Below the pieces are notes generated by a model. The model did no database searches. It was not told the DNA's origin and saw nothing but the letters and a program-made list of their open reading frames with translations. The position numbers and the translations under genes are program-made. Positions 144 to 61,397 of a stretch of 64,000 nucleotides of DNA are shown here, one piece after another; positions within the stretch are counted from its first letter, which is position 1, and the number at the start of each line of letters is the position of its first letter. This stretch comes from Eledone cirrhosa (lineage: Eukaryota), in the NCBI GenBank assembly GCA_964016885.1, contig OZ024740.1, positions 392,646,001-392,710,000 of the forward strand. The letters are read 5' to 3'.

Positions 144-558
144 TATATATATATATATATATATATATATATATATATATATATATATATATATATATAT
201 ATATATATATATATATATATATATATATATATATATATATATAAACAGTGAGTGTACTGAGGAAGGGTGATGCCCAGAAACATTAGTGTCTGCAGTTCTG
301 TTTACATGCCAACACAAGAGCAAGCATGAAGGGTTCATTCTACTGACATGGCATTAAACATGAGGCTTGTTTGCATAATTGCAAACGAATCGAATGTTAT
401 TATTAATATTCGAAAAACTCAGATTACATTTATATATATATATATATATATATATATATATATATATATATATATATATATATATATATATATATATATA
501 TATATATATATATATATATATATATATATATATATATATATATATATATATATATATA
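144..558. repeat. (TA)n arrays (144-243, 431-558), representative of dozens of TA, CA, CATA, TAA and GA microsatellites in the window
   Basis: Direct reading. Confidence 0.98.
253..294 (+). ncRNA. Type I hammerhead ribozyme in a short PLE terminal fragment (about 244-430) between (TA)n arrays
   Basis: TGTA CTGAGGA A GGGT GAT GCCC A GAAA CA TTAG TG TC TGCA: core plus three stems. Confidence 0.7.
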
Positions 559-793
559 AATTAATAAAATCTATGAAATAAAAACAAAGAACAAGTTCCT
601 TATATCAAAAAATTCATCATTTTACGATCGTTTCTGGGATGTATATGTGTGTTGGTATGTATATCATGTTTAAGATCTATGTAAAAATATTACAAATTAT
701 CAGAGAAAATATATATACCTTCACATATACATGCCGTCCTCAGAAATGATGAGATGTGTTTATTGAAAAAAACAAAGAATTGATATAAAGAGT

Positions 794-3155
794 TTGTATG
801 ATTTCACCACATATACGAACCCACCACACAACTCCTTTCTTGAAAACTTCGAGAAAGACCTATTTGACTTAATCAAACACCTCAGATTTAAGAAATATAA
901 ATCTAATTTTCAAAAGGATCTCGACTCTACCCTATTGGAACTAATAAAATCTAGCAAAGTCCACGTCCACTCTGACAAAACAGGAAATCTATACCACATG
1001 GATATTGATAATTATAATGAGTTCATTTATAAGGAACTCAGGAAAAATTATAAAAAAACAAATAATGCGGCTCTTACCAATATCAAAAACAAAACATACA
1101 ACATAGTAAATAAACTCAATATTGAAGACAGAACTGAACCTTTGGCACTGAAAAAACCACATTTTAACCCGAAAGATCACAAATCTAACTTCAACTCTAA
1201 TCCTTCTATAAGACTTATATGGCCTTCCAAGTCAGACATTGGCATTATTAGTAAAAACAAATTGGATAGAATTATCCCACAATTAAGAAAACACGTTAAC
1301 TTACCACTCTGTGAAAACACATCCCAAGTAATTAATTGGTTTTCTAATATTAAAAATAAATCCTCTGCTTCATTTCTACAATTCGATATAGATGCTTATT
1401 ATTCCTCTATATCACCCATACTCCTGAACAAAGCCTTGATATTTGCCAAAAATAGATCAGACTTAACTATGGATGACATTAATATTATCACGCACGCTAG
1501 ACAAACACTACTGGAATTTCAGAAGGAGTATTGGACCAGAAATACATATAATAATCTCTTCGACATAACTATGGGCTCTAGTGATTCTGCCCAAATAACC
1601 GATCTTATGGGCCTCTTTCTTCTATTTAACATTAATTCATCTTTCCCCCACCTTAAAGGTGGTTTATATCGTGATGACTGTCTTCTTCTATCCATTAATC
1701 TTAGCCTATCAGAAATTGAAAGAAATAAAAAACTTAGAACTTTCCTCAAAGACTATTATAATCTCACTATTACATTTGAAAACACCAGTAAAATAGTCAA
1801 TTTCCTAGATATAACTATGGACCTATCTACGGGTATCTACCAACCTTACCATAAACCTAACCAAAACTTGCATTACATACACTCACAATCCAATAACCCT
1901 AGATCTATCCTTAAAACCTAGCATATAATATCTCACTCAGGATCTCTAACCTTTCATCAAATCAGGATGTATTCGATAAAAACGCGCCCTTTTATAACGA
2001 AGCTTTAGCTAGAAGCGGCCACAAAAACAAATTAGTCTACATACCTCGCACCAATAATATTTCAAACATACAACCTAATATTACCAACAAACACCAAATG
2101 AAAAACCCACACCTAAATGCCACTCATACTACACCTAAAAAAACCAACCCAAAACTTAATTTCTCTACCTCTTCTCACATAAAATATAATGACTTTCAAA
2201 AAAACCATTCACCCTAATACTCCAACATATGTTAACAACATAACTAACAAAATTCCTAGTAATCAGACTAAAACACCTACATCAGTTAATCTAACTAAAC
2301 CTATATATAATAAAATCACTAATAGTAACTCTCTTAGTAAACCTCCTGATACATCGTATAAGAAACAATGTCGAAACCGTAATAGATGGGTTACTTGGTA
2401 TAATGCTCCATTTAATCTACAGATTAAAGACCATATCCCTAAAAAATTCTTTGCTATCCTAGAGAAAAATTTCCCACCAAACCATAAATACCATCAAATT
2501 TTAAATAGATCTACTGTCAAATTTTCCTACTCCACTACCAAAAATATACAACAGTATATAAGTGCATACAATATATATAAGTGTAAAAGAATCATAAATA
2601 TACCACCAACACATCAAACCAACCATAATGCTAAAATAAACCATAACAAACCACCATCTCCTTCACCTATAACAGGTCCTGTAAACTCCACACCAATTTT
2701 GACTAACTCCCTGATATAATATTTACGAATGGTTGTAACTGTAGAATCAAAAGAAATTGTCCATTAAAGGGAAATTGTCTTATTAATAACATAGTCTATA
2801 AATGTAAAATTAGCACTAAGGATTCCACTCATTCATATATAGGAGCTACGTCTAACTAATTTAAAGTAAGATTTAATACCCATAAACATAGTTTTAAAAA
2901 TGCCGCATTAGCTAATACAACATCCTTGGCCGAAGCAATCAATAATTATAGAAAGAAGAACATTCATTATAACCTGACCTGGAGCGTGCTTAAAAGGGCC
3001 ACCCCTTATCAAAATAACAGATACGAGTGTAGGTTATGCTCCCAAAACTTTTTGAAATCATGAAATCTAAGGATATCCTATTAAATAAGCGACAGAAATT
3101 AATTATATCTTGCAATCATAGAATTAGAAAAACCTTAAAATATTATAAACTTAAT
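794..3155 (+). pseudogene. PLE RT + GIY-YIG polyprotein, disrupted by stops and frameshifts
   Basis: ORFs 794-1921 and 2189-2719 plus an endonuclease remnant in other frames. Confidence 0.85.
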
Positions 3156-3908
3156 TAATATATACCTTACTCTTATATTTTACAAATTATTATAATTGTT
3201 TTTTTTTTATTTAGTTAACCTATAATTAGTATTTTACTACAGAGAATTTCATAATTTTATTTCCCTCTTACAGCTCTCTTTCCTTAAAATTATTTTTAAC
3301 CTCACTATTTCATTTAATCCCCTATTTATCACATTTATCACATTTATCACATTTAATACCTATGATTATTAATTATAATTAATATCCTTAATATCATCAA
3401 TGTCCGTATAGATACAATACTCTTTATAATTTTTTTTATCTATCTCAGTTTTTTCCATATATATATATTTTGTATTGCTTTAATTTTTTACTTCTTTATT
3501 TATCACATTCATATGAATTAATATAATTTTATCCCTATAAGTATACCTATCAATTAATTTAATTTCCTGTTATGTATCTAGATTCCTTGTAGTTTAAATA
3601 AGATAGGTATTTCTCACTAATACCCTTATCCCCCCCCCAATTCTTTTTCCTTCGTTTTTAACAACATTCTTTAATAATATCAAATTTTCGTGTACACTTC
3701 ACTATCTTCTTGACTTGACCTCATTTTCTCCTCCCCATTGTATTCTTTTCATTCAAAGCATTAATCTGCACTCCTCCACACCTAGATTTAATTTCTACTA
3801 CTGTTATTCTATCAACTTGACCTCTAAATCATTTCTATTGGTCAATTCAAAACCTGTTCCGAAACAGACTCTTTATATCAATTCTTTGTTTTTTTCAATA
3901 AACACATC

Positions 3909-4047
3909 TCATCATTTCTGAGGACGGCATGTATATGTGAAGGTATGTATATTTTCTCTGATAATTTGTAATATTTTTACATAGATCTTAAGCATGATAT
4001 ACATACCAACACACATATACATCCCAGAAACGATCGTAAAATGATGA
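3909..4047 (+). ncRNA. Hammerhead ribozyme with ~100-nt stem II
   Basis: Stem I TCATCATTT/AAATGATGA; CTGAGGA 3918-3924; stem II ATGTATATGTG/CACATATACAT and GGTATGTATAT/ATATACATACC; GAAA CGATCG TA. Antisense copy at about 614-752. Confidence 0.88.
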
Positions 4048-59647: not shown

Positions 59648-60087
59648 CAAAGCACCAGAACACATGTCGCAAGGTAATTTAGCCGACTATCTAACTATAC
59701 GGCTGCTTATCAATCACCTTTTGTCATTATTAGAAGATACTTGACCACTCATGATTTTAAAAATCATGTTCAGTTAAAAAGGATTTTTAAATAATTAAAA
59801 TATACACAGACATAATATAATGTAAAATGAAATTGGAAGGCCCATATATATATATATATATATATATATATATATATATATATATATATATGGGCCTTCC
59901 AATTTCATTTTACATTATATTATGTCTGTGTATATTTTAATTATTTAAAAATCCTTTTTAACTGAACATGATTTTTAAAATCATGAGTGGTCAAGTATCT
60001 TCTAATAATGACAAAAGGTGATTGATAAGCAGCCGTATAGTTAGATAGTCGGCTAAATTACCTTGCGACATGTATTCTGGTGCTTTG
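59648..60087. repeat. 440-bp near-perfect palindrome centred on (AT)24
   Basis: Arms 59648-59843 / 59892-60087, one mismatch seen (59661 vs 60074). Confidence 0.95.
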
Positions 60088-61130
60088 TGACCACGCTCGC
60101 CAACAAGACCTGGCAACTCCGTGAACACAACCAACAGTTCACCTTAAAATGGGATATACTTTCCAGCGCAAATGCATATCGGAGTGGTTTGAAGTACTGC
60201 AGGTTATGTAACCTTGAGCTATTTTACATACTAAAATCCAAAAACAAACTACTTAACGATAGAATTGAACGATCATTATACTGCAACCACAAACTAAAAG
60301 CTAAATTCTCTCACTATAAAATAACTTAACATTCGAACCCGTAACTACAACACCACTTTCTAGCTAACAACCTTCTCTTCTCCCCCACACTACAAGACAA
60401 TACACTGCTTATCACTATACATGGTAACTCAGTACAATTCCTAGATTACTACTACAAAACCAAAAGTTCACTCACCACATATACTTTATCTGTCCCCTCT
60501 CTACCTATATATCTCTCTCTACATCCATTACACTCTCTCTCTCTCACCTTTGACCTACCTCCCTCTCAACATCTATGAACTTGACCTCTGGTGCAATAAA
60601 TAATTCCGACCTCAACTATCTACGCATCTCTCCAAGAGTAACTAATAAAACCCCTACCATAACATTTTGATTAAGATATCTACAAGCCACTCTCTCCTAC
60701 TTCTCCAACCCCTGCATATATTTCCTTCTCTCTCCATCTTCCCTACTTTTCTCTCTTCCTGTTCCACTCTATCTTCCCCAACAACCCCACTTAAGGGTTT
60801 TTACATTGTATATTTACCATTCTGCTCTGAGGAAACAGTGGTCACAGCATTGGATATTCGAGTTCTGCAAATACTTGTGAATTTGCACGTAGCGGAACTA
60901 GGCTGCAGTACCACCGTGGAAACACTTGTAAGCACACGGAATAAACTACCTTTTTATGATGTCTACCTGTTATTATTCATTCTTTATATACACTCCGGAA
61001 TACTGAAGGATCAGGAACTAAGTTTCTTGAACAATTCTTCCATAACTCGTAGAGTAACCTCTTACCGTACGTCAACCATATCCAGTGTAGTAATTAACCA
61101 TCACTGCATCTTGGATAATCCTATACCTAA
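60084..61130 (+). mobile_element. 5'-truncated Naiad-type PLE
   Basis: GIY-YIG C-terminus (TTLANKTWQL..CRLCNLEL..CNH) and 3' UTR homologous to 53188-54300; ends in (TA)n. Confidence 0.9.
60823..60934 (+). ncRNA. Hammerhead ribozyme with long branched stem II
   Basis: TGCT CTGAGGA A ACAGTGGT...ACCACCGT G GAAA CACTTG TA AGCA; paralogous to 53993-54112. Confidence 0.82.
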
Positions 61131-61280
61131 TATATATATATATATGTATATATATATATATGGGTGTCTGTGACCTGTATACACTGGTTACAGATACACG
61201 CACACACACACACACACACACACACACACACACACACACACACACACACACACACACACACACACACATATATATATATA

Positions 61281-61397
61281 GTAATAATAATAAATGTGAA
61301 GACTAAAATCCAAAGAGGGCTCAATAAGGATAAATAAGATCCCGTTAAGGGTGAAAGCAGCGATTCTTTGCTTAAACTTTAATCTGTTATTTTAATA
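61281..61397. mobile_element. Minimal CAGAAGA-family PLE end (tail on -, inverted piece on +)
   Basis: Homology to 39571-39610 and inverse of ~39647-39707. Confidence 0.8.

Follow-up and report, generated by a model that had tools for sequence, protein, structure and literature searches.

The 64,000-nucleotide window of Eledone cirrhosa DNA analysed here (OZ024740.1, positions 392,646,001 to 392,710,000; contig C1 of a 3.0-Gb genome) contains Penelope-like elements (PLEs) whose insertions in (TA)n are built from two head-to-head arms. The arms end at two fixed positions of the element, each followed by a copy of the same covarying hairpin. The two ends of one insertion are almost always of different kinds (heterotypic), and the arms are antisense copies of independent length on opposite target strands. 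This organization suggests that a pair of reverse transcriptase (RT)-endonuclease (EN) proteins on two hairpins likely primes one cDNA at each cut (TA)n end, which would yield two-armed insertions ending just 5' of each hairpin. Besides the window, the analysis covered a contiguous 1.06 Mb of the DNA around it and a set of targeted loci totalling ~0.9 Mb; genome-wide counts in this genome are those of exact sequence patterns.

Judged by their motifs, the window elements are Hydra-clade-type PLEs, because their open reading frames (ORFs) carry the clade motifs given in PMC8557442 (Craig et al. 2021). Family K (the 'CAGAAGA' family) has a unit of 3,258 nt with its own 712-aa ORF, and family W a unit of 3,527 nt with many natural open frames of ~808 aa, so that the repaired 20672-23002 protein called for by the initial annotation is unnecessary. 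The N-terminal RWK motif is present as RWK at position 50 in W and as RWR in K, and the change from DKG to DKT is found in W (DKT at 133), K (SDKT) and A (SDKT). The linker and EN motifs CxCx5C, CxxC and CxH read CNCHLPDRC, CGLC and CRH in W and, by eye, CNCRNRADC, CDLC and CKH in K, with no CCHH motif in either. Moreover, the elements are inserted in (TA)n and display the architecture of EN+ PLEs, namely partial tandems with a pseudo-long terminal repeat, an inverted 5'-truncated copy and a one-sided tail. The proteins of families C, D, W, A, F504 and F154 are 34-51% identical to that of K, and the family A ORF (767-1921), which carries DKT and YRDD, matches the K protein at 45% in tblastn. 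Pfam recognized neither the RT nor the EN of the Hydra type, and a metagenome scan gave a single weak, unrelated match. A candidate assignment of the K 3' end to ORF 20672-23002 was rejected; this ORF belongs to family W, which has its own tail.

According to PMC8557442, C-terminal EN+ PLEs of the Hydra clade share with the present elements the RWK/RWR, DKT, CxCx5C, CxxC and CxH motifs, the lack of CCHH and a single RT-GIY-YIG ORF, in addition to the (TA)n target, partial tandems, inverted 5' copy and one-sided tail. By contrast, the tails here are 64-175 nt long compared to 30-40 nt there, the units measure 3.26 (K) and 3.53 kb (W), and the hammerhead cores of K and W are non-canonical. The duplicated bulged hairpin and the heterotypic use of ends are likewise different, being absent from the available parts of that paper.

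Mapping of the (TA)-followed ends on a natural K copy revealed that 133 of 134 lie at two positions, +1 or +85: 68 ends fall at -1..+1 (site 1) and 65 at 81..85 (site 2). These counts come from a strict BLAST run, as looser scoring spuriously extended site-1 ends to +34 via a TA-rich loop. The fixed breakpoint claimed by the initial annotation is thus real. Genome-wide, exact K junctions number 19,493 at site 1 and 13,818 at site 2 (33,311 in total, duplicates and microsatellite growth included). Both sites share 3-4 nt of TA microhomology with the target, and a minor register of site 1 lies 4 nt upstream, as expected if AT microhomology with (TA)n alone set the breakpoints. However, the K unit has 16 positions that match (TA)n at 7/8, some within the tail, and two (TA)-rich decoys in the tail, although closer to the target in sequence than site 2 is, account for no more than 125 matches genome-wide (duplicates and microsatellite growth again included) against the 33,311 ends at the two sites. 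Because better-matching decoys give so few ends, microhomology alone, which the earlier reading had named as a possible refutation, was rejected and is scarcely credible as the explanation. Among 35 insertions inspected, one clear target duplication was found (11 nt, in a flank that is not pure TA); such duplications are mostly hidden because the target is (TA)n.

A shared motif, RCUCY..RUHGAGY, follows the breakpoint. It has a stem of 4 bp, then a 2-nt bulge on the 3' side and a fifth pair, topped by an upper part that varies between 4 and 74 nt. From 165 TA-anchored fold-backs, 130 passed filters and were grouped into 52 clusters, some of which are non-PLE noise. Counting only the first member of each, 17 of the 52 clusters have the paired motif 3-14 nt past the breakpoint, and 19 do when any member is counted, compared to a mean of 0.81 and a maximum of 3 in 200 dinucleotide shuffles and 1% at random positions. 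A hairpin past the breakpoint in dissimilar families had been proposed before, and these counts uphold it, although only one of the two hairpins had been noticed. Twenty strict-consensus hairpins, found without requiring pairing, start 5-11 nt 3' of the breakpoint. Pair 1 is G-C in ten and A-U in ten (Fisher p 1e-5), and pair 5 is C-G in ten, U-A in nine and U-G in one (p 1e-4); both p-values are optimistic, since the families are related and independence is overstated. In the variants GUUC/GAAC and ACAC/GUGU, pairs 2 and 3 are altered on both sides. No Rfam family was found for the hairpin. K hairpin 1 alone (positions 0-49) is also embedded in a different repeat at G000:C1:5684779, 14211373, 14212748 and 393143352. 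This repeat presumably resembles a Helitron-type end.

In tandem copies, the tail runs on into the 5' untranslated region (5'UTR), and a second copy of the motif occurs 6-9 nt after site 2. This hairpin 2 is present in all eight Hydra-type or motif-bearing families with read-through, as seven full motifs and one variant (GCAC/GTGC, in family D). It was seen as one continuous stretch in K, C, W, F504, F154 and B, and was deduced from fold-backs in F137, in which no single continuous stretch was found. K read-through is represented by 542 exact junctions from tail to 5'UTR. The spacing between the hairpins is about 70-175 nt (71-172 nt as measured in these families) and equals the tail length. 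The proposal that one target end primes at the RNA tail has to be revised, as this end is a second internal site followed by a hairpin copy in a tandem unit.

The main rival, in line with the initial annotation, retains internal priming at hairpin 1 only: the tailed end would be primed at the RNA 3' end by a transcribed (UA)n flank that pairs with the target, and hairpin 2 would have another 5'UTR role. Most copies do end with the tail and (TA)n, which would give read-through RNA a (UA)n end; the junction TAC+TAT is identical under both models, and long tailed arms with a whole ORF require site 2 to lie at the 3' end of a full unit. Nevertheless, priming from a (UA)n flank leaves unexplained why site 2 lies 6-9 nt before a hairpin of the same motif in 8/8 families, and sources ended at site 1 would yield site-1 ends and hence homotypic pairs. 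We consider it unlikely.

One site of each kind is used in 108 of 112 resolved insertions that are directly joined or near-joined. For K, 47 of 49 directly joined head-to-head insertions are heterotypic, one is site1/site1 and one site2/site2, with a further seven unresolved (p 2e-12 versus independent choice). Most of these loci were picked by a body pattern blind to end type and some by a tailed junction; one heterotypic locus is duplicated, and the site1/site1 case was deliberately sought. Twelve other families gave 54 heterotypic insertions out of 56, two homotypic and a further one unresolved, counting pairs within 3.8 kb. All 28 insertions of family C are heterotypic, as are 7/7 directly joined W insertions, with two more interrupted. 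Four right ends retrieved later were all at site 1, matching the prediction. Pattern lists yielded 26 heterotypic against three apparent homotypic cases, two of which were not single insertions and one of which was real.

The same pairing bears on the idea that the two RTs use hairpins of different repeats, on a partial-tandem or circular RNA or on two RNAs, so that template layout rather than a dimer sets the pairing. Such a layout would accommodate arms longer than one unit arising from both sites, does not require displacement of one cDNA by the other, and fits the lone site1/site1 case, a 405-nt arm joined to a full-length arm. However, two freely choosing RNAs predict ~50% homotypic insertions where four in 112 were seen, and a partial tandem with two copies of hairpin 1 should give many site1/site1 insertions, of which K has one in 49 even though it was sought. 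We regard this layout as quite improbable. Arms longer than one unit with seamless unit junctions were observed from both sites at L255-L259 and at G000:C1:13275067, 19625078 and 14438292; such arms demand a template that is a multimer or a circle, or else one that is crossed by strand transfer.

Both arms are antisense copies placed on the 3' ends of opposite target strands. Among 47 K insertions, the longer reach belongs to the site-1 arm in 25 and to the site-2 arm in 13, with equal reach in nine; the site-2 arm lies wholly inside the tail in 12. Window examples of a tailless arm that outreaches the tailed one are 7900-7990, 28093-28480 and 61278-61402. Arms overlap by 1-19 nt at their junction in 26/47. 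Either arm may be the short 'inverted' one, so the label of an inverted segment is arbitrary. These counts bear on a route in which a single cDNA folds back and primes itself, with synthesis stopping at the hairpin, as self-priming has been proposed in PMC3846280. Many near-perfect palindromes, the nine cases of equal reach and the clustering of turning points at -70/-73 would suit it. Yet in 25/47 the tailless arm includes sequence that the tailed arm lacks, and the tailed arm is confined to the tail in 12/47 (compare window positions 7900, 28093 and 61336). Because the tailless arm often outreaches the tailed one, simple fold-back of a single cDNA is refuted as a general route and very improbable as the origin of these insertions, but may still join two cDNAs in some cases.

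[quoted passage not shown] In LINE-1 twin priming, cDNA synthesis on the RNA of the element is primed from both target ends, and the resulting head-to-head insertion is joined through microhomology; chance complementarity determines where the second site lies, and the arms are free of overlap. Extension of both target ends as cDNA in this sense is deduced here from the products, that is, from head-to-head geometry and independent arm reach. A second site of chance complementarity and non-overlapping arms were not found: both sites are fixed, and the arms overlap in 35/47 K insertions, by up to kilobases.

Within the window, the seven arm and partner pairs named earlier are all present, each with an arm abutting (TA)n, a partner arm and a tail running to (TA)n, and the five K copies are real. 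Of the seven, the one at 26027 is a match of only 9-10 nt, a length not significant alone. The features are as follows.
556..797, minus strand: site-1 (tailless) arm of family A, a 98% inverted match to 3864-4105.
798..4235 (end approximate), plus strand: long tailed arm of family A with a 5'-truncated Hydra-type RT-EN ORF (767-1921; tblastn), 3'UTR and tail.
4110..4195, plus strand: family A hairpin 1 (ACTCT..ATTGAGT; fold z -3.27).
4410..4950 (ends approximate), minus strand: site-1 arm of family K, split by element B; partner tail piece at 5866-5965.
4961..5754, plus strand: element B, a ~650-nt non-coding unit; left inverted arm from site 2 including the tail, right arm ending at site 1.
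5107..5142, plus strand: B hairpin 1.
5213..5230, plus strand: B hairpin 2 (the ATCTC noted earlier at 5212).
5400..5473, plus strand: B hammerhead-like core (weak match to Rfam Hammerhead_1).
5878..5923, plus strand: K hairpin 1, within the tail fragment that is the partner of the 4410 arm.
7195..7376, minus strand: two-armed insertion of family C; hairpin 1 at 7252-7229, with a mismatch in this copy.
7408..7837, plus strand: two-armed insertion of family D; hairpin 1 at 7775-7793.
7900..7990, no strand assigned: K, 77-nt site-1 arm fused to the final 14 nt of the tail only.
20482..20636, plus strand: K, ~10-nt site-1 arm and tailed arm; hairpin 1 at 20550-20595.
20664..23966, plus strand: long arm of family W with its tailless end at site 1 (~23966); ORF 20672-23002 with stops.
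26027..26265, plus strand: family E, tailed arm with hairpin 1 at 26194-26218, plus a 9-nt arm (weak).
26431..26598, plus strand: older, C-like two-armed insertion; hairpin at ~26527-26550.
26630..27689, minus strand: W-related two-armed insertion; variant hairpin at 26717-26791.
28093..28480, no strand assigned: K, internally deleted site-1 arm (28093-28393) fused to a tail-only piece (28395-28480).
39554..40976, minus strand: 1.4-kb tailed arm of K, with hairpin 1 at 39595-39639.
54172..54235, plus strand: hairpin 1 of another Hydra-type copy, located in its tail; the copy is missing from the initial annotation.
60992..61055, plus strand: hairpin 1 in the tail of the related copy 60088-61130, likewise missing.
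61278..61402, no strand assigned: K, final 54-59 nt of the tail fused to a 66-nt site-1 arm.

The tail was said never to be included in the inverted segment, which does not hold: the inverted arm at 4961 begins at hairpin 2 (5213-5230), with hairpin 1 and the tail both inside it (copy at 5027-5062), and inverted arms with a tail also occur in K at C1:38400966 and C1:52522434 and at five W loci.

Two further arrangements accompany these insertions. The K copy 39554-40976 carries at its 5' end (40970-40993) an inverted piece of ~20 nt derived from a non-standard internal site. Directly 5' of the Hydra-type copy 60088-61130 lies a 220-nt perfect palindrome centred on (TA)24 (59648-60087), which appears to be a left target end that folded onto its own (TA)n, copying flank DNA rather than priming at site 1.

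Hammerhead-like sequences were found in several elements. Canonical hammerheads gave zero Rfam hits at gathering score in the five sources searched, and the CUGANGA core was not found in the K or W UTR; these families have the variant cores CAGAAGA..UGAAA (K, by eye) and CCGAAGA..UGAAA (W). The K core has a non-canonical U4 position, and cleavage by either variant is putative; K turning points cluster at the 5' edge of the K core, element positions -70 to -73 (e.g. G000:C1:22820064 and 17521516). The core of element B matches Rfam Hammerhead_1 with 17.4 bits and an E-value of 0.54, below the gathering score. With both hairpins and this core in its ~650 nt of non-coding sequence, B (4961-5754) is a non-autonomous, retrozyme-like partner in which the twin signal has been preserved. 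Non-autonomous hammerhead units resembling B are covered in bioRxiv 10.64898/2026.07.22.740005.

Outside the PLE insertions, the window contains two LINE-type elements at 36182-39463 and 29285-34233, one with an 883-aa RT ORF matching Pfam RVT_1 and the other with a gag-like ORF and a broken RT. In the neighbouring DNA, an array of ~423-nt units with a large inversion (G000:C1 ~392,886,000-392,895,000) is related to a TA-flanked fold-back family and was left out of the counts.

Altogether, we propose as the most likely route that a pair of RT-EN proteins would bind the two hairpins of one RNA and that both (TA)n strands would be cut. The 3' TA of each nicked target may then pair with UAU/AUA, the 3-4 nt immediately 5' of the stem, and be extended. 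The two cDNAs would stop at independent lengths and join via short microhomology, and a site-2 cDNA passing site 1 might displace the other cDNA or be templated by a redundant copy of the RNA. The PLE 'tail' would then simply be the distance between the two hairpins.

The hairpin pair also appears outside this genome. Among the published sequences in File S7 of PMC8557442, read by eye, Hydra-1_Ajap of a sea cucumber begins with both hairpins, and Hydra-2_Ajap (sea cucumber) and Hydra-2_Amil (coral) carry hairpin 1 in the 3' tail. On balance, we lean towards a hairpin pair that extends across the clade, from cnidarians to echinoderms and the present genome, and that may serve as a two-site loading signal for an RT-EN dimer with one strand per subunit.

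Several observations, besides the family relatedness behind the covariation p-values, weigh against this interpretation. An earlier, looser pairing-blind test, in which the 5' strand was mis-registered, gave 80 of 124 pairs, a value reached by 26 of 100,000 shuffles. The hairpins are individually weak, with fold z from -2.0 to +0.6 in 10/11; because the folding energies are modest, the case for the hairpin rests on position and covariation. Three of the six published Hydra sequences in the same File S7 have only variant or unclear hairpins. Four insertions are homotypic, namely the K site1/site1 and site2/site2 cases, one in D and one in X4. Both arms copy the same region in 35/47 K insertions, which on one linear RNA needs displacement. 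The Poseidon element PAc of the green anole lizard chose its start site in vitro without strand difference (PMC11167929, Frangieh et al. 2024). Finally, the non-Hydra family X1, one of the 12, is heterotypic in 7/7 without the motif; its read-through sequence has a different hairpin and no evident duplicated motif. Therefore, the pairing rule may be wider than the motif. X1 is a PLE with a C-terminal EN (e.g. G000:C1 ~393,075,600-393,078,900) that has different hairpins after its two sites, and a common SINE-like repeat, in 5'-truncated pieces, directly adjoins many of its site-2 ends, possibly through template switching or co-targeting.

RT-bound RNA stems that fix where copying starts or stops are familiar from the telomerase template-boundary stem and the bulged stem-loop epsilon of hepadnaviruses. 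These are analogies only, as each has one element compared to the tandem pair here. PAc resembles the present elements more closely, with internal RT initiation at two start sites that bound the tail in vitro, nicking and extension of both strands, an AT-rich target, a requirement for RNA to +172 and a predicted dimer (PMC11167929). [quoted passage not shown] The motif RCUCY..RUHGAGY was not seen in the PAc RNA as printed in Fig. S1 of that paper.

One-sided tails and inverted copies (PMC8557442, PMC3846280), as well as internal RT initiation with two start sites bounding the tail (PMC11167929), were already in print. The bulged hairpin just past the breakpoint, the second hairpin after the tail and the one-of-each end rule appear to be new; no description of the duplicated hairpin or of heterotypic end use was found in the full-text literature, although the pairing of ends may have been treated in qualitative terms in subscription papers outside it, for instance Arkhipova 2006.

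The origin of the inverted copies and one-sided tails of PLEs is named as an open problem in the available parts of PMC8557442 and PMC11167929. A defined cis signal, the 5-bp stem with a 2-nt bulge present twice, together with the rule of one site per target strand, makes PLE integration directly testable. It also suggests a portable two-hairpin handle to write RNA-templated sequence onto both ends of a DNA break. As telomerase RTs have the PLE RTs as their sister group (PMC8557442), the hairpin pair offers a point of comparison with the positioning of the related telomerase RT on its RNA. If true, the model describes a retrotransposon for which programmed double target-primed reverse transcription is the normal route of integration and in which hairpin spacing sets tail length, and it would explain the long-puzzling one-sided PLE 'tail'.

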